Of a stretch of 23,481 nt of DNA, positions 6,003 to 23,481 are shown in pieces. Each line of letters opens with the position of its first letter. The stretch's first letter is position 1. The position numbers and the translations under genes are program-made. The stretch lies in the UHGV virus genome UHGV-0138297, one strand, 5' to 3'. Origin of the DNA: a virus. The notes under the pieces were generated by a model, which saw nothing but the letters and a program-made list of their open reading frames with translations, was not told where the DNA came from and searched no databases.

Positions 6003-6458
6003 CTATCTCCCGTGATTCAGGAAGTCGATTAGTTCTTCGCGTGTGGCGCTGTAAAACGTCACGTCATCCACGCCTTTGAAGTATTTCTTGATGGTTCCGA
6101 CACGCTTAAGGCCAATCATTGCGCAGTAAATCTGCCCGTGGCGGAATTTGCGTGCGGCGAACGATGTGACGCACTGAACGGTGGTGTTAGTCAGAATGTA
6201 TCGCCAGAACGCCAGCCCGATTTCCTTGCTGAAGCCGCGAATCTCTGGCAGGTACATGGCGTGGCAATCGAATGTCAGCGGCTGAATCTCCTGATAGTAA
6301 ACAATGCCGCCGAACTGCCCGTGCACGTTCACCTCAAAGTAACGGCAATCAGGTTTGTAGTCGTATCCATCACCGTTGTTGCTTCCGGCAATAATGTCAG
6401 GGTGATTTCCGACTGCTTCGATCAGGTCGATGTTTCGCGTTGGTTTGAACTGAATCAT
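6003..6458 (-). CDS. P22 gp14-like head/ejection accessory protein
   Basis: 151-aa ORF between the tail needle and the gp7-like gene. Its start overlaps the needle stop (TAATG). Confidence 0.75.
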   Translation of the reverse strand: MIQFKPTRNIDLIEAVGNHPDIIAGSNNGDGYDYKPDCRYFEVNVHGQFGGIVYYQEIQPLTFDCHAMYLPEIRGFSKEIGLAFWRYILTNTTVQCVTSFAARKFRHGQIYCAMIGLKRVGTIKKYFKGVDDVTFYSATREELIDFLNHGR

Positions 6459-7306
6459 TACTGCTCCGCGATTATCTTGATGGTTGTGGCAGTAAACGCC
6501 GCACCATTAGACTGAATGGTTAACGTGCTGCCATTTGTGGCAAGAAAGCCGTCTTTATCCACGCTGAAGAACGTAGCTAACAGGATGTTATCGGTTGTTG
6601 TCGCCGAGTTGCGACTGCTTACCAGAGTGTCAGGAACAGAGCCGGAAAAGGTTAGCTGCATTGACCTGTTGGAGGTTCCGCTGGGCCACGTCCCGACGAT
6701 CGACAGCTTGAATAACAGGGTTTTGTTCTCGTTGAACACAACCATCTTGTTGTTAACGGTGTCGAAGAATGGTGCCAACGAGCCGGATGACGGCGTGAGC
6801 GTTTTCAGCAGGCTAACAAGGTTGGTCGGCGCTGTCGGAATGGTTACAGATACGCCAGAGTAAACAACCTCTGACTTTTTTCGAGTAGTGGCATACTCCA
6901 GAGCATCAATGCGCGTTTCATGGTCTGAAAGCGTGTTTTGAATGGCGACAACTTCATCAGTCAGATAATCAATATCGTTTTCTGCTGTCGTTAATCGCGA
7001 ATCAAGGCCGACTATCGCCGCTTCTGCGTTAGTGATCCTTGTTTCGTGGTCCTGAATCTTCGCTTCAGCTGATGCCAGTCGAATTTCGTGATCGACCAGA
7101 ATCACATCCTGCGCATCGTTCCTGACTTGTGCGTCATAAGCGCCCTGCCCTGCTTCATTGGCCTTGTTCGCCACGTTACCAACATCTGTACCTTGCGCGA
7201 TAACGTAAAGCAGATACGACTGCGAGAAGATATTGCGTGGAAGGACTGATGTATCGAGCCGCGTAGCCTGGATGATTACCGGCTCATTGAGATTCGAATC
7301 AGCCAT
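6458..7306 (-). CDS. Tail needle (P22 gp26-like) with an extended C-terminal domain
   Basis: The true start is the internal Met ([43 protein letters not shown]...), which closely matches the P22 gp26 N-terminus as I recall it. That ATG (7306-7304) overlaps the gp10 stop (TAATG). The product is 282 aa against 233 aa for P22 gp26, with a Ser/Thr-rich C-terminal part. The ORF-track start at 7408 is an upstream extension. Confidence 0.88.
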
Positions 7307-8724
7307 TACTCGATCCTTATCTGGCAACCAGACAGAGTGACAGGTGACTTCGTGATAACGCGCAATTTGAAGCCAATGTTTTTCCTGATGCGCCCTACTT
7401 TCTTCCACAAAACGCGTTTGTCGTAAACGAACGGTTCATTCTGCTCAATCATCTGCTCACGCCCGTAATTGATGCCGTCAGTGGTTGCAGAGAGGAACAG
7501 GCGGTCGGCGTACTGCGCAACGCCAGTTGACGATTCAACCTCAAGGTCGAAAACTCTGGCGTTATCCGCTTTGAACAACGGAGTAAACAGCAGGTGTTCC
7601 TGTTGCTTGTCGTACTGGCTGCTGATGTCGAATTGCAGTTTCCCGGTAACAGATTCCAGCTTATCGCCGCACGTTATCTGATTGCCTTCGTAAATGAAGT
7701 CGATAGCGCGGTACACATCGTCATACAGGCCTGTTTTCAACACACACCATTGCGGACCATTGGCGCTTGAAGATGCGTCGTAAACAAGAACATGGCGCGG
7801 AAGGTGGATAATCAGCAATTCATGAGCATCAAACCGCAACGATTCCATCACGCCATCAGCCAGTTCATCAGCAGTGTAGGAGCGTAGTATTTTCTCAATG
7901 CTCGCGCTGGCGATTGGTGACACCTGACCGGAGCCGATGATGTATACAGACGGCGCACCTGTTGCCGGATTGCTGATGAACGCATACGAATCAGCAAACG
8001 GCGTTTTGCAGTAAGTCCCGGCGATTCCTTTTTGCACCATCAACGATGGCTGGGCGACATACAAAGCGGCACCAACAGTGGTTGCGCCCGTCAGGGAGAA
8101 ATATTCAATCGTCGATGAGCCAAAGCAGACGATGAAGTCTCGCCATGTTCCGATGCCGATGATGCCGTCAGGCTGCGACTCGGCACGATATTGTGCGCTG
8201 TAGCGGTCAGGATGCGATTCGTCTTCAGGGTCAGTGATAAACCATGAATCTGTGCCGTCTTTTGACCACGCATAACGCCCACGTAAGCGCGTAATGTCGC
8301 GGACTGAGCCTAACTCATACTGAGTAAAACCGCTGTCTGTAGGCCAGTTTGAGACGGTTTTAACCGTGCCGTCATAACGATACTCGACCAGTTGACCATT
8401 AACGCCTACCGCCTGTGATGTCCGACCATGCGCCATTGATACACGACCACTTCCGGCGACGTCACCGACTTCACTTTCGCCTTTGTACAGCTTGCCACCA
8501 CACACACGATAAACAGCATTCTGCGCCATGTTGTACTCAACTCCGCGCGATACGCCGTTCACATCAGAACGTTTGGCAATGCCCGGGAATGAGCGAAGAT
8601 ATCCGCTGCTGTTCAGGATTTCTTTGGGTGTAGCCAACATATTCACTGGCAGATAGTCGATATAGTCGGCGTTTCTAAAGTCTTTGCCGACACCTTTCAT
8701 AAGCGGAAGTTGCTGAATCGGCAT
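7306..8724 (-). CDS. Tail accessory factor, P22 gp10-like
   Basis: 472 aa, the same length as P22 gp10. Synteny gp4-gp10-gp26. Confidence 0.88.
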
Positions 8725-16989: not shown

Positions 16990-17483
16990 CCCGGAAGCCC
17001 GGGGATCGTAATCTGCAGCTGGTTAGCCAGGGAGTTAATCTCAGCGACCAACACTGGCTTCGTATAGCGCCATGCCGCCAGCCCTTGTCCGCAGAAACTC
17101 GCCATGTCTTTCTTCTGGTCAAACTCATGACATTTCATGTTGAGCTGCGCACTTAAGCTGTTGCGATGCTGAAGTTCTCCGGTGAAGTAGTCATCGAGGA
17201 CTTTATAGGCCGCGTACTTGAACCCGGGGTTTAACCAAGCCGCATAATCGTAAGCAACAAACTTCCCGCCATATGTTCCACCGTGTACACCGCGCTCAGT
17301 AAAAACCACAGATTCGTGGTTTTTCTCCAGCTCGGCTAAGAACTCTTTGGTCTGCTTGTTTCGCAGGTAGTGGTAAGGCGATTCAGATTCACTTTTACCA
17401 CTGGCTTTCCACATATCAGTGAGGCAGATCATGCCATCTTCACCGATACGAATTGGTTGATTGAAGAGGGTTAATGATTTCAT
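16986..17483 (-). CDS. KilA-N domain protein
   Basis: 165 aa. The N-terminal region (IRIGEDGMICLTDMWKASGK...) resembles the KilA-N DNA-binding domain. Confidence 0.75.
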   Translation of the reverse strand: MKSLTLFNQPIRIGEDGMICLTDMWKASGKSESESPYHYLRNKQTKEFLAELEKNHESVVFTERGVHGGTYGGKFVAYDYAAWLNPGFKYAAYKVLDDYFTGELQHRNSLSAQLNMKCHEFDQKKDMASFCGQGLAAWRYTKPVLVAEINSLANQLQITIPGLPG

Positions 17484-17598
17484 AGCGTGTACCTACTCTT
17501 TGAAATGAACCTTTGCCGCACAGGAAACCAGCCCACCGAGGCTCGCCAGCACTAACTGGTATCCTCAAAGGCCCATTCCAAAGGGGCAGGTTCGGTGT

Positions 17599-17652
17599 AA
17601 AAAACATGCGTTGCGGTACGCATTTATTGGAAAAAGCCCCGCATCGCGAGGC
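17599..17652 (-). terminator. Two tandem rho-independent terminators downstream of the lysis cassette
   Basis: On the minus strand: hairpin GCCUCGC-GAU-GCGGGGC followed by UUUUU (plus 17631-17652), and hairpin AUGCGU-ACCGCA-ACGCAU followed by GUUUUUU (plus 17599-17623). Confidence 0.55.
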
Positions 17653-17684
17653 TCATTAAATGGACTTTGTGATTTGCAAAAAAA

Positions 17685-18152
17685 TTATTTCAGGCATTGC
17701 GTCCTGATGTATTCCTGCAGGTAGTTAACCTGCGCGGTTATCTTGTCGATTCCACTTCGTAGACGGTAATAATTGAGTTCAGCATCTGCTGTAAGTCTTG
17801 GGCTTTCTCCATCGCCCATGCTGCTGGCTCCGGTCGTTGACTTTGCACAGGTGGCGGCGACTTGCAGCCGCTTACGGCCAGCAATGACATCGCTATGCAG
17901 ACGCTCAATGGTTTCTTTCGCATCAGCCAGTTCTCCGGTGTATTTGGCATCCAGTGCAGCGACATCACGCTGGCGGGTCTGCATGTCTTTAATGGTGGCG
18001 GTCGCCAGGAGGAGTTTCTCAGTGGCCTTATCGCGCTGGTCTCTGTAAGTGATGGCGTTGTCGCGGTAGTGGTTCACGAAGAAAGCCAGTGCGCCGATTA
18101 ACGCCAGCACCAGCAACTGCAGCCAGTAACGCTTAACCAGTGCGCTAATCAT
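17685..18152 (-). CDS. Rz: i-spanin Rz
   Basis: 155 aa, closely similar to lambda Rz as I recall it ([16 protein letters not shown].....[21 protein letters not shown]). N-terminal TM segment. ATGA overlap with the lysozyme gene. Confidence 0.9.
17738..17923 (-). CDS. Rz1: o-spanin Rz1 (lipoprotein), embedded in the +1 frame of Rz
   Basis: Starts at the internal Met ([20 protein letters not shown]...), has a lipobox (VSGC) and a Pro-rich mature region. It lies entirely inside Rz. Confidence 0.78.
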
Positions 18153-18598
18153 GACAGGAACAGAGCTCGCTCTGCCTTGCGGCGATTCGTGAGCCCCGGC
18201 ATCACCTTTCCGCCTGATTTATTCCAGCGCAGAAATTCATCTGCCGCGCCTTTTATATCGCCAGCATTCAGCTTTTTCAGCAGTGTAGATGTGGAAAGAG
18301 CACGCGACCCAACGTTGTAAGCGAACGACACCAGTGCGTCGAACTGGCCTTGTGTCAGCTTCACCCTGACAACTTTCAGCACGTCATTCTCATAACCAAC
18401 AAGCCCTGTTTTCAGAAGCCTGTCAGCGGTTTGCTGGTCGATAGTCATACCGCGCTTTACTGGCTTTCCGTCAACCGGATGGGTCCAGCCATAGCCGATG
18501 GTCCACGGCGCATCTCCCGTTCCGGGGTCTGGGTAAGCAGTCAGCCGACAACCTTCAAATTTTTTTATCAGAGCAATTCCGTCAGGACTGGTTTGCAT
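18149..18598 (-). CDS. Phage lysozyme (T4/P22 gp19-type, GH24)
   Basis: From the internal Met ([24 protein letters not shown]...) the protein matches the P22 gp19 pattern and ends ...[18 protein letters not shown] lies 6 nt upstream. The ATG sits inside the holin 3' end. The ORF-track start at 18670 is an upstream extension. Confidence 0.9.
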
Positions 18599-18899
18599 CG
18601 TCAACTCCCGCCTTTTTTGCTGCAAGTTTTTTAATAAGATTGCCGATCGAATCGGTGCCGATGTATCCAATAAAGACGCTGGCTATGTAGGCGAGGTTGC
18701 TGCTCAGGCCGATAAAGTCCAGAAGGTCACGAACGAACCAGGCAATCATCGCGCACATCAGCGCATCAATTAGCGTTTTTGTTACCGCGCCGCCGTTATA
18801 GCGACCACGCAGATACGCCATGATAAAAGCCAGCATTGCACCAATACCCTGCTCCTTGGCGGCAAGTAGCGCAGCGATGAAATCTTGTTTGTATGGCAA
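18582..18899 (-). CDS. S: Class I holin, lambda S-like, probably TTG-initiated
   Basis: Sequence from ...[31 protein letters not shown]... to the C-terminus is near-identical to lambda S as I recall it. I place the start at TTG 18899 (SD GGAG 6 nt upstream, 10 nt after the HNH stop), which gives 105 aa. The alternative ATG at 18935 overlaps the HNH gene by 26 nt and adds a 12-residue Arg/Lys-rich extension. Confidence 0.85.
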
Positions 18900-18909
18900 T
18901 TTTTTCTCC

Positions 18910-19410
18910 CTACGCCTGGCACGCGAATTGACCATGATATTTCCCCCTAAACTCTGAGATTACCAACTCAGCAAGTTCGAGATCATCGAAGTAACCCAAC
19001 CAGATCTGCTTCTTATTTCTACTTCCGCAAACTCTCCATTTCCCATTCTTAACATCAAGCCTGACGCCCTTTATGGGATTCTTTCCTCCGGATGGTTTGC
19101 GTCTGTTATATTGATTTTCTGATTTGGTCGATAATCTGAGGTTTTTAATGCCATTGTTTAATGGGTTTCTATCTAAATGATCCACGTCCATTTCTGGCAT
19201 GCATCCATATACATACAACCAAGCCAGCCGATGCTCTTTATAGATTTTCCCATCTATACGTATTTGCCTGTAACCAGATCCATTAATCGTTCCAGCTCTT
19301 GAGCCAACTTTAATTCTGCGATTGCTGGATTTAACCCAAGTAAAAACCCCTGAAACAGGCTCATAGTGCATAAGGCTTTTCAGGACTTGCTGAGTGATTA
19401 CCATCTTCAT
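18910..19410 (-). CDS. HNH homing endonuclease with AP2-like DNA-binding domain
   Basis: 166 aa with an HNH motif region ([46 protein letters not shown]) and an AP2-like C-terminal segment ([28 protein letters not shown]). AT-rich relative to its neighbours. Start context is GAGGAGAGAGACT-ATGAAGATG. Confidence 0.88.
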
Positions 19411-19502
19411 AGTCTCTCTCCTCGCAATAGAAGCGGGAGCTGTGCGTTGTAGAGAAGCGCCTCACCCATTGCGTTTAAGGGGTAAGTGTTTAGCTGTATG
19501 GA

Positions 19503-19527
19503 TGGTCGCGAATAAAAAAGCCCACGG
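19503..19527 (-). terminator. Rho-independent terminator in the late leader, upstream of the HNH gene
   Basis: On the minus strand: GCCCAC-CGCGCC-GUGGGC followed by UUUUUUAUU. Confidence 0.6.
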
Positions 19528-19792
19528 CGCGGTGGGCAATAGAGGGTAGTGCGTTGAGCTTTTGCTCTTATGGTCCTGGTAGGTATTTGGTGTGTGGTGA
19601 CCGGTGCTGTGTTTTCCGGCATGTAAATGAACTACCCGTCGTCGCCATGGTGAGCCTTTACCTCACCATCTAGCTGATAAGTTAGCGCATCAGCCTGCGC
19701 ATTCACCACAACGATAATTGCACTGCGCCTGTTTCGGTTAGCGTAACGGGATTAACCGGTCACCCCAATGCAATTATCTGTTGTGCAGATAC

Positions 19793-19821
19793 AAAAAAGC
19801 CCCGAGCTATTAACTCAGGGC
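19793..19821 (-). terminator. tR'-like terminator ending a short (~57 nt) late leader RNA
   Basis: On the minus strand: hairpin GCCCUGAG-UUAAUAG-CUCGGGGC followed by UUUUUUGU. The flanking sequence (...TTTTTTGTATCTGCACAACAG...) resembles the sequence after lambda tR' as I recall it. Confidence 0.7.
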
Positions 19822-19857
19822 TTTATTTAACGAGTGCATTTATCCATCGTTGAGTCA

Positions 19858-19886
19858 AATTTACCCAACTTTATTCAAAAAGTCAA
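19858..19886 (-). promoter_or_regulatory. Late promoter pR' (lambda type), presumably containing the Q binding element
   Basis: Minus strand reads TTGACT-17 nt-TAAATT, then TGACTCA and ACGATGG; TTGACT is at plus 19881-19886 and TAAATT at 19858-19863. This is almost the same as lambda pR' as I remember it. It lies directly downstream of Q, with the predicted +1 near 19850. Confidence 0.8.
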
Positions 19887-19928
19887 TATCATGCCGTTAA
19901 TATGTTGCCATCCGTGGAAATCATGCTG

Positions 19929-20552
19929 CTAACGTGTGACCGCATTCAAAATGTTGTCTGCGATTGACTCTTCTTTGTGGCATTGCACCACCAGAGCGTC
20001 ATACAGTGGCTTAACAGTGCGTGACCAGGTGGGTTGAGTAAGGTTTGGGATTAGCATCGTTACAGCGCGATATGCGGCGCTTGCTGGCATTCTTGAATAG
20101 CCGACACCTTTGCATCTTCCGCATTCTTTCTCAACAACTCTCCCCCACAGCTCTGTTTTTGATATATCAACCGCACGGCCTGTACCGTGGCAATCTCTGC
20201 ATCTTGCCCCCGGCGTCGCGGCACTACGGCAATAATCCGCATAAGCGAATGTTGCGAGCACTTGCAGTACCTTTGCCTTAGTATTTCCTTCGAGCTTTGC
20301 CACACCACGGTATTTCCCCGATACCTTGTGTGCAAATTGCATCAGATAGTTGATAGCCTTTTGTTTGTCGTTCTGGCTGAGTTCGTGCTTACCGCAGAAT
20401 GCAGCCATACCGAATCCGGCTTGTGATTGCGCCATCCCCATAGCAGCCATCACATCAGTACCGGAAAGAGAGTCAGAAGCCGTGGCCCGTGGTGAGTCGC
20501 TCATCATCGGGCTTTTTGGCGAATGAAATTTAGCTACGCTTTCGAGTCTCAT
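19929..20552 (-). CDS. Q: Late antiterminator Q (lambda type)
   Basis: 207 aa, essentially matching lambda Q as I recall it (MRLESVAKFHSPKSPMMSDSPRATASDS...), including the zinc-binding Cys cluster CRDCHGTGR...CGRCKG. Confidence 0.93.
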   Translation of the reverse strand: MRLESVAKFHSPKSPMMSDSPRATASDSLSGTDVMAAMGMAQSQAGFGMAAFCGKHELSQNDKQKAINYLMQFAHKVSGKYRGVAKLEGNTKAKVLQVLATFAYADYCRSAATPGARCRDCHGTGRAVDISKTELWGRVVEKECGRCKGVGYSRMPASAAYRAVTMLIPNLTQPTWSRTVKPLYDALVVQCHKEESIADNILNAVTR

Positions 20553-20737
20553 GGCCTTCCCCTTTTTCCCTGTTTGACCATCAGGACGCCGTTAACTATT
20601 ACGTGACGCTCGCCTTTGCTGTCTCGGTTGTACTTGAGCACTGTTCCTCTTGCGCAGGAAAGCATCCTCGCCACTTCGGTCTGATTGCCTCGTGTCTGGA
20701 TAAGAAGCTCTGGTATCGTTTGAATTGTGGCGTTCAT
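20549..20737 (-). CDS. ninH: NinH-like small DNA-binding protein
   Basis: 62 aa. The motif TIPE/DML....GNQTEVAR.L.CSRGTV.KY......G....IVN.VLMV matches lambda NinH as I recall it. ATGA overlap with Q. Confidence 0.78.
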   Translation of the reverse strand: MNATIQTIPELLIQTRGNQTEVARMLSCARGTVLKYNRDSKGERHVIVNGVLMVKQGKRGRP

Positions 20738-21096
20738 ACGTTCTCCAGTTCGGTGATTTTTATTCCAAGCCGTCCGCCTGGTACTTTCACACCACGAATT
20801 ACGCGAATGTCATCGAATTGCTCGTCGTCTTCCGCAAATCCGGCGTGGATAAGGGAGTCGAGTAAACCTTTCAGGATGTTGTCGAGGTCGCGGCGGCGGG
20901 AGTCTGGAACGTCTGCGATGACTTTGATACGGAGTCGTGATTTGGTGAAAATGTCTAACTTGAGTTGGCGAATGATTTGCTGAACGTCTTTTCGGTATTT
21001 CTGGCCTTTATCGCTGATGTAGTATTGGCTTCCCCGTCTTCTCCAGTAGGTATTCAGCGACGGCGGGTATGGAAGCACAAACTGATATTCGTTCAT
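20734..21096 (-). CDS. rusA: Holliday-junction resolvase RusA
   Basis: 120 aa with the RusA pattern (PPS.N.Y.R.......S.....YR..V......L.....K....I.....PD.RRRDLDN..K...D.L..AGF..DD.Q..D.R.V.....GGRL.I.ITE). Confidence 0.88.
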   Translation of the reverse strand: MNEYQFVLPYPPSLNTYWRRRGSQYYISDKGQKYRKDVQQIIRQLKLDIFTKSRLRIKVIADVPDSRRRDLDNILKGLLDSLIHAGFAEDDEQFDDIRVIRGVKVPGGRLGIKITELENV

Positions 21097-22679: not shown

Positions 22680-22856
22680 TCATTTCCTCGCACGATGCCT
22701 TAGCCACCGGATATCCCACAGGTGAGCCGTGTAGTTGAAGGTTTTTACGTCAGATTCTTTTGGGATTGGCTTGCGTTTATTTCTGGAGCGTTTCGTTGGA
22801 AGGTATTTGCAGTTTTCGCAGATTATGTCGGTGATACTTCGTCGCTGTCGTCTCAT
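22680..22856 (-). CDS. ninE: NinE-like protein
   Basis: 58 aa from the internal ATG ([58 protein letters not shown]), with SD GGAGGT upstream. Resembles lambdoid NinE as I recall it. Confidence 0.75.
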
Positions 22857-23197
22857 TCGTACCTCCTGTCGGTAAATCTGACACCCTGACCAATAGCCCA
22901 TGCTGTTGTGTACTCGATCAGACTTGCCATACGCTTCACGCTCATCTGCGCGCTGCTTTCGCGAATGTTGACGTATTCACCTTCAAGGCCGGGCAAAACA
23001 TCAGCTTCCTGCTTTGTTGCCACTGCATGACCGCTTATCAACAAAACCTTCCATTGTTCTGGTTTTAACCATTTGCCGCACCATTGAACCTGACTTGCGA
23101 TATCCGCCAGCATCGCGTGAAATTTTGCGTTCTGGTCAAGGTTGCGCTTGTAGTCAGTAATGCGGATGGTGATTGGCTTGTCTTTATCGAGTGGTGT
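22853..23197 (-). pseudogene. ninB: ninB-like recombination gene, 5'-truncated by the IS insertion
   Basis: The open frame without a start codon reads ...PLDKDKPITIRITDYKRNLDQNAKFHAMLADIASQVQWCGKWL..., which matches lambda NinB from about residue 25 onward as I recall it. The frame runs upstream into the IS terminus with no N-terminal region. Confidence 0.7.
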
Positions 23198-23481
23198 TGA
23201 CCTGCCCCCAGGATTAGATACAACCGTCAGTTAGTAAGGTCGGTTTGTTTACCTTCACATTTTCCATTTCGCCACCGTGCTGCAAACTCTGATGGCGTCT
23301 GATAATTCAGTGCTGAATGTGGACGACACTCGTTATAATCCTGCCGCCAGTCATTAATGATTTTCCTTGCGTGAACGATATCGCTGAACCAGTGCTCATT
23401 CAGGCATTCATCGCGAAATCGTCCGTTAAAGCTCTCAATAAATCCGTTCTGCGTTGGCTTGCCCGGCTGGATTAAGCGCAA
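23198..23481 (-). mobile_element. IS3-family insertion sequence, right end only; continues beyond the window
   Basis: A terminal sequence beginning TGACCTGCCCCCAGG... at about 23198 is adjacent to the transposase 3' end. The boundary is inferred from where NinB similarity stops and a TG...-type end begins. Confidence 0.75.
23227..23481 (-). CDS. IS3-family transposase OrfB, C-terminal fragment (5' end outside the window)
   Basis: The translation (...[24 protein letters not shown]...[18 protein letters not shown]...) has the conserved C-terminal motifs of IS3-family DDE transposases. Confidence 0.85.

Follow-up and report, generated by a model that had tools for sequence, protein, structure and literature searches.

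It is known that the free-standing endonuclease genes of phage T4 are organized as promoter-less cassettes, which carry expression signals for the host gene situated downstream (PMC2988022). In T-even phages the examples are the seg and mob genes, with mobE located between nrdA and nrdB, and segG carrying the promoters of gene 32. For the lysis genes of lambda, one extra positive charge at the N-terminus has been described to turn the holin S105 into the antiholin S107 (PMC9636201).

We analyzed a 23,481-nt stretch of the virus genome UHGV-0138297 (the window, meaning this whole stretch), part of which is probably a late-control and lysis cassette belonging to a CUS-3/P22-like prophage, mosaic in structure and carrying a homing-endonuclease insert that re-starts the holin. 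The cassette comprises Q, pR'/tR', a lambda-family holin, a GH24 lysozyme and Rz/Rz1, followed by CUS-3/P22-like head genes, all on the minus strand. The genes listed in the initial annotation of this region are real and correctly positioned, whereas their attribution to source phages is right only in part.

Late control and lysis genes

The late-control elements are the following.

19929..20552, minus strand: Q late-gene antiterminator, 207 aa (PF03589, E=1e-57)
19858..19886, minus strand: pR' late promoter, -35 TTGACT, 17-nt spacer, -10 TAAATT
19790..19824, minus strand: tR' intrinsic terminator, hairpin 19824-19796 with a 13-bp stem and a T-run
19513..19537, minus strand: second terminator-like hairpin, GCCCACCGCGCCGTGGGC followed by T6, in the spacer between tR' and the holin

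The antiterminator is of the lambda type, as had been proposed: it shares 99.5% of amino acids with lambda Q (96.6% with P22 gp23, 98.6% with HK620 Q), and the Q region is 97% identical at the nucleotide level to lambda 43875-44609 (blastn). The promoter pR' is the sole promoter-like site within 17400-20700; its 17-nt spacer contains the Q-binding element TTTTGAATAAAGTTGGG, and the sequence TGACTCAACGATGG downstream of it corresponds to the lambda-type initial transcribed and pause region. The pR' region is 100% identical to a stretch of mEp235 annotated as 'lambda Qut site with 2 bp mismatch'. The Antiterm domain (PF03589), the promoter and the pause element together place the system, by sequence, among the lambda Q-type antiterminators with pR'-qut.

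The late promoter, also assigned to lambda previously, is lambda-like, but the similarity to lambda ceases at 19829, approximately 20 nt into the late transcript, and the terminator is of the P22/HK620 type. It is situated about 60 nt past the start site, yielding a short late leader as in P22 and HK620, compared to the 194-nt 6S RNA of lambda; the homology to P22 extends to P22 position 37945, where the annotated t late ends. For the spacer (19853-19511), the counterpart in the E. coli ET729 prophage, which has no nuclease, is 96.5% identical. Given the near-identity of Q and pR' to those of lambda and the family membership, Q would load onto RNA polymerase at pR', and the polymerase would then read through tR' and the second hairpin into the late operon.

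The lysis genes are situated further downstream.

18582..18899, minus strand: lambda-family class I holin body, 105 codons from TTG (PF05106)
18149..18598, minus strand: soluble GH24 (T4/P22-type) endolysin, 149 aa (PF00959, E=6e-48)
17685..18152, minus strand: Rz i-spanin, 155 aa (PF03245)
17738..17923, minus strand: Rz1 o-spanin lipoprotein, 61 aa, in the +1 frame inside Rz (PF06085, E=4e-19)

The holin ORF (18582-18935) matches PF05106 with E=6e-30 over profile positions 7-99 of 99 and is 80% identical to lambda S over 106 residues, as expected for a full-length class I holin. Its closest relative in the comparison is S of phage Louie (99% of amino acids), the only difference being leucine, encoded by TTG, in place of Met3. 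A specific derivation from lambda does not follow, as the identity is the same, about 80% in amino acids and 73-74% in nucleotides, to each of lambda S, P22 gene 13 and HK620 S. The Met-Lys/Arg-Met dual start is absent from the 5' end of the holin ORF; its counterpart, ATG-AAG-ATG, opens the nuclease ORF.

The lysozyme gene overlaps the 3' end of the holin by 17 nt. Its product is an endolysin of the P22 gp19/GH24 type and not lambda R, in agreement with the initial annotation: it is 46% identical to P22 gp19, matches PDB 9KBQ (E=8e-44) and the P22 lysozyme 2ANV (E=3e-28), and gave no match in the comparison with lambda R and HK620 R. The N-terminus is not hydrophobic and contains no SAR segment, consistent with a soluble enzyme. 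Rz1 lies wholly within Rz and has the lipobox LAVSG-C with its cysteine, as in two-component embedded spanins. The suggested lambda origin of the spanins is contradicted by their identities, which for Rz are 78% to P22 gp15 versus 52% to lambda Rz, and for Rz1, 92% versus 38%. Judging by the respective families, the class I holin would open the inner membrane, the lysozyme would degrade the cell wall, and the P22-type Rz/Rz1 pair would disrupt the outer membrane.

Mosaic structure

By nucleotide similarity, the cassette is a mosaic of at least five segments, in gene order: the part from roi through Q, pR' and tR', common to HK620, lambda and P22; the spacer, common to the E. coli ET729 prophage; the endonuclease insert; the S-R-Rz block as in phage Louie, with a P22-like Rz C-terminus and Rz1; and an HK620-like KilA-N block. 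The mosaic nature of the module claimed earlier is borne out, as the coverage of 17400-20800 by any single phage record stays below 80%, and approximately 890 nt (18903-19793) have no nucleotide match among 50,697 phage records. The P22-like character of the structural genes is likewise upheld, with 93.8% nucleotide identity to the P22-like phage CUS-3.

Of the two recombination joints predicted earlier, the one at the boundary of Rz and KilA-N was found.

17556..17631, minus strand: mosaic joint, with the lysis block on one side and the KilA-N (hkbK-like) block on the other

Here the homology to Louie and ET729 stops at 17631, and that to HK620 hkbK (93.7%) starts at 17556. The other one, between the holin and the lysozyme, is not a recent joint, since S-R-Rz (18902-17631) is a single block, 99.7% identical to phage Louie (99.5-99.7% in nucleotides over Louie and the ET729 prophage); the boundary is a family-level discontinuity only, relative to lambda. 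There is also an intragenic joint in Rz near 17900, the identity to P22 being 58-66% upstream and 86-96% downstream of it (100-nt profile). The identity to lambda and P22 was profiled (the 100-nt profile and blastn), as had been suggested for locating the junctions. The sharpest junctions are not where they had been predicted: they lie just after tR' (about 19794-19784) and at both ends of the insert (19401 and 18897). Mosaicism as such is textbook here and of little importance. An IS element is present in ninB of this prophage; the prophage may be defective.

The endonuclease gene and the holin start

The insert and the translation signals at its ends are as follows.

18910..19410, minus strand: HNH-AP2 homing endonuclease gene (predicted), 166 aa, 501-nt ORF (PF13392 HNH_3, E=9e-15)
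19402..19439, minus strand: holin-type translation initiation region, now that of the nuclease; hairpin, SD and ATG-AAG-ATG
18897..18912, minus strand: replacement holin initiation region, which the insert carries at its 3' end; nuclease stop, SD and TTG
18933..18948, minus strand: alternative in-frame holin start inside the nuclease ORF; SD AGGGGG 18948-18943 and ATG 18935-18933

The ORF at 18910-19410, between tR' and the holin body, was not mentioned in the initial annotation. In ten homologues, the residues D77, H78, N86, N90, N99 and N102 are invariant, in line with an HNH nuclease domain. The putative AP2 domain scores 25 bits, under the Pfam cut-off of 33.3; in the AlphaFold model (pLDDT 82.5), plant AP2 domains can be superposed on the C-terminal domain at 1.2-1.4 A with probability 0.99-1.0, and the best fold match of the model in PDB is I-HmuI 1U3E (Foldseek E=9e-4, probability 1.0). 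The gene has a GC content of 42%, compared to approximately 50% in the flanks, and is under purifying selection (dN/dS 0.08). It is not borne by an intron or intein: the reading frame of the 505-nt insert is not that of the holin and closes with a stop codon, and no Rfam family, including group I and II introns, reached the threshold in the window. Nuclease activity, a target site and present-day mobility are predicted properties of the product.

The 505-nt insert is placed exactly between the second Met codon of the holin and the following Pro codon. In the empty site of Louie and ET729, the order is hairpin, GGAGGTGAGGCCT, ATG AAA ATG CCA TAC AAA; in the filled site of the window, it is hairpin, GAGGAGAGAGACT, ATG AAG ATG, then the insert (GTA...TAG GGAG AAAAAA TTG), then CCA TAC AAA. 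Hence the ATG-AAG-ATG opening the nuclease ORF is the Met-Lys-Met dual start of the holin. It occupies 19410-19402 and is preceded, with a 7-nt spacer, by an SD (SD-antiSD energy -8.9 kcal/mol) contained in the hairpin CTCCCGC/GCGAGGAG at 19439-19418; the whole of 19402..19439 can be aligned with the sequence that precedes S in Louie and ET729. As the gene has no promoter of its own and begins on the hairpin, SD and Met-Lys-Met start of the holin, it should be transcribed only late.

At the other end, the nuclease stop TAG (18912-18910) is followed by the SD GGAG (18909-18906), a spacer of six A and the TTG codon (18899-18897), which takes the place of the S105-type Met codon; the nuclease ORF and the holin body are in different frames. 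Translation of the holin would start at this TTG, whether directly or by ribosomes that re-initiate after terminating at the nuclease stop, and the native pair of starts, S107/S105, would thereby be lost. As an initiator codon, TTG is weak. In this sublineage the in-frame ATG located 36 nt upstream of TTG, with its own SD, may additionally give a longer, more basic isoform; the ATG 18935 start, which is the choice of the public annotation, yields a 117-aa form with a 12-residue N-terminal extension.

Distribution and persistence of the insert

The gene was not found in 50,697 deposited phage genomes or in 5,426 complete E. coli genomes. It is 98-100% identical in nucleotides in 10 loci (100% in nearly all 50-nt bins), which have four kinds of Q (three Pfam families and one without a Pfam hit) and at least four types of head genes. 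The flanks of loci with an identical nuclease gene are only 60-85% identical; S-R-Rz goes down to 60-84% identity to the window (L010), and the identity falls at the holin start. This combination of a precise presence/absence site, empty in Louie and ET729, with the same gene in diverged flanks is a signature of mobility. Some of the 100%-identical copies could come from ordinary recombination of whole late regions between prophages; two loci (L013 and L014) share everything from Q to Rz.

More distant homologues, at 77, 70, 61, 59, 58 and 57% amino acid identity, and one recombinant, are all located on the holin start. In all eight diverged lineages of this small sample (to 57%; several from short contigs), the junction consists of the stop codon, 10 nt counted from the SD, TTG or GTG, and CCN; the 10-nt stretch begins with GGAG, GGAGG or GGGGG, with SD energies from -8.9 to -12.1 kcal/mol. 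These lineages precede three holin subtypes, whose nuclease-free alleles start with MKM, MKRM/MKKM or MKNM/MKM and then Pro, and the nuclease N-termini bear the cognate motif (MKM, MRM-P or MKRM-P). An in-frame upstream ATG is present in every TTG lineage (the window type, L024, L026, L110, L195 and L112), and is absent from the GTG lineages L027 and L028, which have CAC instead of CAT. Among the nuclease-carrying alleles, the holin is under purifying selection (dN/dS 0.02-0.13). No relative of the nuclease at 48-50% identity is next to a holin, and in IMG/VR, 80 relatives at 38-49% all lack a lambda-family holin within 2.5 kb.

These observations are consistent with a nuclease whose spread, past or present, depends on cleavage of nuclease-free holin alleles and on copying of the gene into them during repair, and that would have been tied to the holin-start site long enough to diverge to 57% amino acid identity.

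Alternative explanations

The real holin of the nuclease-carrying alleles could be the 117-aa product from ATG 18935, with TTG 18899 being merely a Leu codon. This is the form called by gene callers and by NCBI/GenBank on 134 contigs; its frame is open, with the in-frame ATG missing only from the two lineages with the stronger GTG, and its SD AGGGGG, 7 nt upstream, is as strong (-9.3 kcal/mol) as the one before TTG (-8.9). The SD is partly built from an AGG Arg codon, which is rare in E. coli. Against this explanation, the 12 residues of the extension are conserved neither in sequence nor in charge, and two lineages do without such an ATG; what is conserved in all lineages is the nucleotide SD and the 10-nt register to NTG. 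The +5 extension would also be an unlikely active hole-former, because a single added charge suffices to make the lambda S107 antiholin (PMC9636201). Overall, we regard this explanation as unlikely.

The insertion might instead have inactivated the holin, leaving a decaying, lysis-defective remnant in which the uniform junction reflects recent common descent. Both native ATG codons of the holin are indeed gone, the prophage has the IS element in ninB, and no plaque-forming phage with the nuclease is known, in line with its absence from the phage and E. coli genomes searched. Decay is, however, difficult to reconcile with intact ORFs downstream of the nuclease (dN/dS 0.02-0.13 at dS up to approximately 2), with a junction that persists where amino acid identity is down to 57% for the nuclease and 28% for the holin, and with the complete-looking late operons, of several morphotypes, at the nuclease loci; we consider it highly improbable. 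Equally hard to credit is ordinary lambdoid mosaicism alone, with the HNH gene as cargo unrelated to the holin. The slot between tR' and S is variable, containing orf-64 in lambda and two reverse ORFs in Louie, and other HNH genes, in one case together with tRNAs, lie free in it in phage N7 and in the E. coli chromosomes AP022003 and CP196291. But our nuclease is not free in the slot: its first codons are the start codons of the holin, and 10 nt separate its stop from the holin body, in an identical register in all eight lineages of the clade and in none of the outgroup relatives.

Implications

Having weighed these alternatives, we retain the insert that re-starts the holin as the probable explanation, and tentatively suggest, as a possibility still short of an even chance, that the HNH-AP2 clade has specialized in a single target, the dual start of class I (superfamily III) holins in enterobacterial lambdoid prophages. 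If so, there would be four consequences. The hairpin, SD and Met-Lys-Met start of the holin would provide strictly late, holin-level expression of the nuclease. The SD and TTG/GTG 10 nt past the stop would keep the holin alive while removing the native antiholin/holin pair, and the lysis clock would therefore be re-set. Where a lineage has TTG, the long, positively charged isoform from the nuclease-internal ATG may rebuild the clock. Finally, the host phage would depend on keeping the selfish gene, since only precise excision restores the start codon.

The nested nuclease, its function being predicted, is a new variant of free-standing homing-endonuclease biology; a nuclease occupying holin start codons is recorded in none of the annotations seen. 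In the public 117-aa "lambda family holin", the first 12 residues are probably outside the conserved protein. For lysis biology, these would be natural holin alleles with a non-AUG start and without the classic S107/S105 dual start, and hence ready material on how start-codon strength and antiholin loss set the lysis time. For selfish elements, the T4 picture of cassettes carrying host-gene promoters would be extended to temperate phages and translational signals, with a defined site where homing between co-resident prophages could be measured.

Comparison with known systems

The cassette resembles that of lambda in gene order, the S/R overlap, Rz1 embedded in Rz, identical pR' hexamers, Q (99.5%) and the holin family (80%); the Q-binding element differs at two positions. 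It differs from lambda in the distance of tR' from the start site (about 60 vs 194 nt), in having a GH24 lysozyme instead of the R transglycosylase, in Rz and Rz1 (only 52% and 38% identical), and in the ATG-AAG-ATG dual start of the holin, lost to the inserted gene. With P22, it shares the short late leader and terminator (97% identical in 19900-19801), a lysozyme of the gp19 family (46%), P22-like morphogenesis genes, and the Rz C-terminus and Rz1 (86-96% in nucleotides; Rz1, 92% in amino acids). The differences from P22 are the holin (only 80%) and lysozyme (only 46%), the diverged N-terminal third of Rz, and head genes of the CUS-3 subtype with little nucleotide identity to P22; gene 13 of P22, unlike the holin here, retains its dual start (MKKM).

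Escherichia phage Louie (PQ850616) and the ET729 prophage represent the nuclease-free allele of the S-R-Rz block: the holin body, lysozyme and spanins are the same (99.5-99.7%), whereas the start is native, with the hairpin, SD and ATG AAA ATG CCA and no nuclease. In Louie, the spacer contains two reverse ORFs, and ET729 has a Q different from that of the window. Phage N7 and the E. coli prophages AP022003 and CP196291 also contain HNH/NUMOD4 genes between tR' and S, but at least some 230 bp separate these from the intact 107-aa S downstream, which has its own start, and they have no nucleotide similarity to our nuclease. I-HmuI of Bacillus phage SPO1 (PDB 1U3E) similarly carries its DNA-binding module after an HNH nuclease domain; it is intron-encoded and 24% identical in sequence, while the DNA-binding domain here is predicted to be AP2-like.

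The T-even endonucleases are similar in being promoter-less cassettes on the host transcript, with late expression and a hairpin at the ribosome-binding site; they, too, carry signals needed by the downstream host gene, which discourages their loss, and spread with co-conversion of flanks (PMC2988022). The nuclease described here differs in residing in a temperate lambdoid prophage, with a lysis-timing gene as the predicted target. It is inserted inside the first codons of the holin, and so takes over its translation start, supplying in return not a promoter but a translational start, namely an SD and a non-AUG codon.

Mosaic structure of the lysis module

All genes of the window lie on the minus strand. 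Using Pfam, BLAST and consensus scans, we found every component of the late-control and lysis module that had been named in the initial annotation:

19929-20552, minus strand: Q (PF03589, E = 1e-57)
19886-19858, minus strand: promoter pR' (TTGACT, 17 nt, TAAATT)
19824-19796, minus strand: intrinsic terminator tR'
18582-18935, minus strand: lambda-family holin ORF (PF05106)
18149-18598, minus strand: GH24 lysozyme (PF00959, E = 6e-48)
17685-18152, minus strand: Rz
17738-17923, minus strand: Rz1, embedded within Rz

The only promoter-like site in 17400-20700 is pR', and the lysozyme resembles solved GH24 lysozymes, including P22 lysozyme 2ANV. On the 3' side, the lysis genes are followed by a KilA-N gene and then by a morphogenesis block, which is P22-like, as annotated, and is closest to phage CUS-3 (93.8% nucleotide identity across 73% of 15.8 kb).

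The window was compared with lambda, P22 and HK620 by blastn, protein identity and 100-nt bins. The identity profiles confirm that the module is mosaic and locate its junctions; no phage record spans 80% of 17400-20800. Metagenome contig L007 is 99.975% identical to the window across 7.9 kb. Q is lambda-like, as initially proposed (97% nt and 99.5% aa identity to lambda, 94.7% and 96.6% to P22). The lambda character suggested for pR' holds for the promoter itself: the late transcript resembles lambda for about its first 20 nt, to 19829, and resembles P22 and HK620 on through the terminator, to about 19794-19784, hence the short leader and the terminator are of the P22/HK620 type. The lambda assignment did not hold for the holin, which is equidistant from lambda S, P22 13 and HK620 S (73-74% nt, 80% aa), nor for the spanins, as Rz has 78% aa identity to P22 gp15 versus 52% to lambda, and Rz1, 92% versus 38%. 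The endolysin is indeed of the P22 gp19 (GH24) type (46% aa identity) and unrelated to lambda R, with no nucleotide similarity to lambda, P22 or HK620.

Two recombination joints had been proposed. The one between Rz and the KilA-N gene is real: homology to phage Louie stops at 17631, and homology to HK620 hkbK starts at 17556. At the holin-lysozyme boundary there is no recent joint, just an old family-level difference from lambda, since the closest relatives hold S-R-Rz (18902-17631) as a single block (99.7% identity to Louie and 99.5% to the E. coli ET729 prophage). An additional joint lies inside Rz near 17900, where identity to P22 climbs from 58-66% to 86-96%. Across 17800-18000, the identity of Rz to P22, lambda and HK620 is 58-71% on the 5' side of this joint; in the 3' part, which embeds Rz1, it is 86-96% to P22 and 45-55% to lambda, as would be expected if the Rz C-terminus and Rz1, which interact, were inherited together. 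Mosaicism as such is a familiar trait of lambdoid lysis cassettes.

Outside the module, an IS transposase is represented by its C-terminal part (rve_3/rve_2 integrase core; 23227-23481, minus strand), which adjoins a truncated ninB (22853-23113, NinB profile positions 51-131). L007, whose NinB is intact (136 aa), departs from the window precisely at 23199; the prophage is thus interrupted, and perhaps truncated, by an IS element. The tail-needle (gp26) homologue at 6458-7408 comprises 316 aa, compared to 233 aa in P22, carries a C-terminal knob domain of the Sf6 type (PF16532, E = 3e-107) and has no nucleotide similarity to P22 or HK620. The segment 1-1266, from the gene-16 homologue to the left end, contains a 322-aa P63C-domain ORF (298-1266) and short remnants resembling the P22 ant/mnt region and HK620 34322-34537, and looks like a rearranged immI-like region.

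A nuclease gene on the holin start

Between tR' and the holin body, a stretch of approximately 890 nt (18903-19793) matches none of 50,697 phage records at the nucleotide level, and nucleotide searches for copies of the insert found none in these records or in 5,426 complete E. coli genomes. This segment encodes a 166-aa ORF (18910-19410, minus strand) with an HNH_3 domain (E = 9e-15) and an AP2 domain below the Pfam threshold; its GC content is below that of the flanks. As the sequence had no match in PDB, a fold search was needed: the top match of the AlphaFold model (pLDDT 82.5) is the HNH homing endonuclease I-HmuI, and the modelled C-terminal domain superposes on plant AP2 domains at 1.2-1.4 A.

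The nuclease-free alleles of Louie and ET729 demonstrate what the insert has changed. There, the holin start consists of a hairpin, GGAGGTGAGGCCT, and then ATG AAA ATG CCA TAC AAA, the classic Met-Lys-Met dual start. The window has a similar hairpin and ribosome-binding motif (SD), followed by ATG AAG ATG, with the frame running into the nuclease (GTA ATC ...); past the nuclease stop it reads TAG GGAG AAAAAA TTG CCA TAC AAA and continues into the holin body. Both holin ATG codons are gone, and an SD and TTG now stand ahead, the TTG being at the position of the S105-type Met. As judged from these alignments, the translation start of the holin is taken over by the nuclease.

The alleles differ in length by 505 nt, and since this number is not divisible by three, the nuclease and the holin are separate proteins; an intein or a fusion is rejected, as the insert is out of frame and terminates in a stop codon. 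An assembly artefact is rejected as well, the same junction being present in more than 10 independent assemblies. The Rfam and tRNA scans of the window yielded nothing, and thus the slot between tR' and S contains neither an intron nor tRNA genes, the latter occupying it in some related prophages. We also considered that holin translation might require translation of the nuclease to open a hairpin, and dropped this idea, since RNA folding around the new holin start is no better than in shuffled controls (z = +1.4).

A second strong terminator-like hairpin (GCCCACCGCGCCGTGGGC followed by T6) is situated at 19513-19537 (also given as 19537-19520), about 270 nt 3' of tR' and 5' of the nuclease. 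The spacer around it is shared with the nuclease-free ET729 prophage (96.5%), hence this hairpin is a part of the spacer rather than of the insert.

Conservation of the arrangement

A protein search yielded nuclease relatives at 77, 70, 61, 59, 58 and 57% aa identity, plus a recombinant with a swapped N-terminal half, and the genomic context was fetched for each. All eight lineages, the window type included, are located on a holin start, and in all eight the nuclease stop is followed by exactly 10 nt beginning with GGAG, GGAGG or GGGGG, then by TTG or GTG and a Pro codon, with SD-antiSD energies of -8.9 to -12.1 kcal/mol. The residues that the stop-to-NTG stretch encodes in the holin frame are not conserved, so the constraint acts on the RNA signal rather than on the protein.

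Three holin subtypes stand behind the nucleases (E. coli-type PF05106, Pantoea-type PF05106 and PF16083), paired with GH24 or GH19 endolysins. According to available gene calls, nuclease-free holins of the Pantoea and PF16083 types commonly start with MKRM/MKKM-PEKD or MKNM/MKM/MKRRM-PYKS, and the nucleases ahead of such holins open with a matching motif, MKM, MRM-P or MKRM-P; in two lineages a change of 1-2 nt disrupts the motif frame, and the nuclease begins at the second ATG. The dN/dS ratio is 0.02-0.13 for holins behind a nuclease and 0.08 for the nuclease. More distant relatives (48-50%) are sited elsewhere, in nin regions, and of 80 IMG/VR relatives (38-49%), not one is within 2.5 kb of a lambda-family holin. 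Taken together, these comparisons are evidence that the arrangement is old and constrained.

In the recombinant (protein P0037, locus L112), the C-terminal 45 residues and the holin junction are the same as in the window, the N-terminal nuclease half is related only distantly, and no holin-type start lies upstream, which points to domain swapping among endonuclease genes at the holin-start site.

Choice of the holin start

In the annotation by NCBI and other gene callers (134 contigs), a 117-aa "phage holin, lambda family" begins at ATG 18935 within the nuclease gene, while the lineages have in common a TTG or GTG start 36 nt further 3'. Since the SD with TTG/GTG is the feature kept in all lineages, we take TTG 18899 as the likely start of a 105-aa holin, identical to the Louie S105 equivalent. 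ATG 18935 is formed by Tyr-His-Gly codons of the nuclease and, in the window, follows a good SD (AGGGGG, -9.3 kcal/mol); its equivalent is in frame in every TTG lineage; the two GTG lineages lack it, having CAC instead of CAT. The 12-residue N-terminal extension varies in net charge from 0 to +5, and its sequence is not conserved. In lambda, one extra N-terminal positive charge makes the holin an antiholin (PMC9636201); hence any long form produced would more probably act as an inhibitor than form holes. A long/short holin pair may have been rebuilt in this way.

Probable mobility of the nuclease

The exact 166-aa protein (182 blocks indexed in the assembly collection) was seen on 97 contigs, and a near-identical variant, on 92 further contigs, from E. 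coli and Citrobacter. Ten fetched loci have the same junction and ORF calls: the nuclease, the 117-aa holin ORF (26-nt overlap), the lysozyme and Rz. Around them, Q is of four kinds (three Pfam families and one without a Pfam match), and the head genes are P22-like, HK97-like, lambda-like and others. The nuclease gene is 98-100% identical in all ten loci (100% in nearly all bins of a 50-nt scan); flank identity is 60-84% in locus L010 and declines gradually in L009, and L013 and L014 have a short diverged patch just within the holin. Such a pattern is expected for homing with variable co-conversion tracts, a general mechanism reviewed in PMC2988022.

Other collections contributed little: tblastn against phages found just relatives at up to 49%, in virulent phages; genome contigs yielded four weak or partial loci with no host assigned; IMG/VR relatives were all at or below 49%; and the metagenome scan gave one near-identical locus (L115, 99%), all others being at or below 47%. 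The IMG/VR and metagenome relatives are useful as negative controls only.

L013 and L014 are two distinct prophages of one chromosome (contig CABWJN010000003.1, GCA_902505335.1), both with the nuclease-holin junction. Their packaging genes are of the HK97 type in one and of the lambda GpA type in the other, their Q-to-Rz segments are nearly the same, and in both another HNH_3 gene (169 aa) separates Q from the nuclease. Exchange between co-resident prophages is possible.

Proposed workings and comparison with known systems

Gene content, order, junctions, conservation and selection are read directly from the sequence; for the action of the parts we rely on their near-identity to those of lambda and P22. 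Q-modified polymerase from pR' would read through tR' and the second hairpin into the late operon. As no other promoter-like site precedes the nuclease, it would be expressed late only, from the holin's own initiation region. Ribosomes would then start or restart at the TTG to produce the holin, and the soluble GH24 lysozyme and P22-type spanins would finish lysis. The nuclease may cut holin alleles that lack it, in lambdoid genomes resident in the same cell or co-infecting it, and be copied in by repair; its imprecise loss would be costly, as it carries the sole start signal for an essential lysis gene.

No account of an endonuclease gene placed inside a holin start turned up in the literature, the coverage of which was incomplete, so that this is not proof of novelty. 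The case is moderately interesting: it corrects the annotation, adds naturally occurring holin alleles that lack the classic dual start, and is an example, open to testing, of a selfish gene built into the lysis clock. HNH genes between Q and S are also present in phage N7 and two E. coli chromosomes, but these are free, at least approximately 230 bp 5' of an intact 107-aa S, and unrelated to the window nuclease at the nucleotide level. With its mobility and effect inferred, the nested nuclease appears as a fresh form of free-standing homing-endonuclease biology, and its supplying the holin start signal parallels the T4 endonuclease cassettes that carry host promoters.
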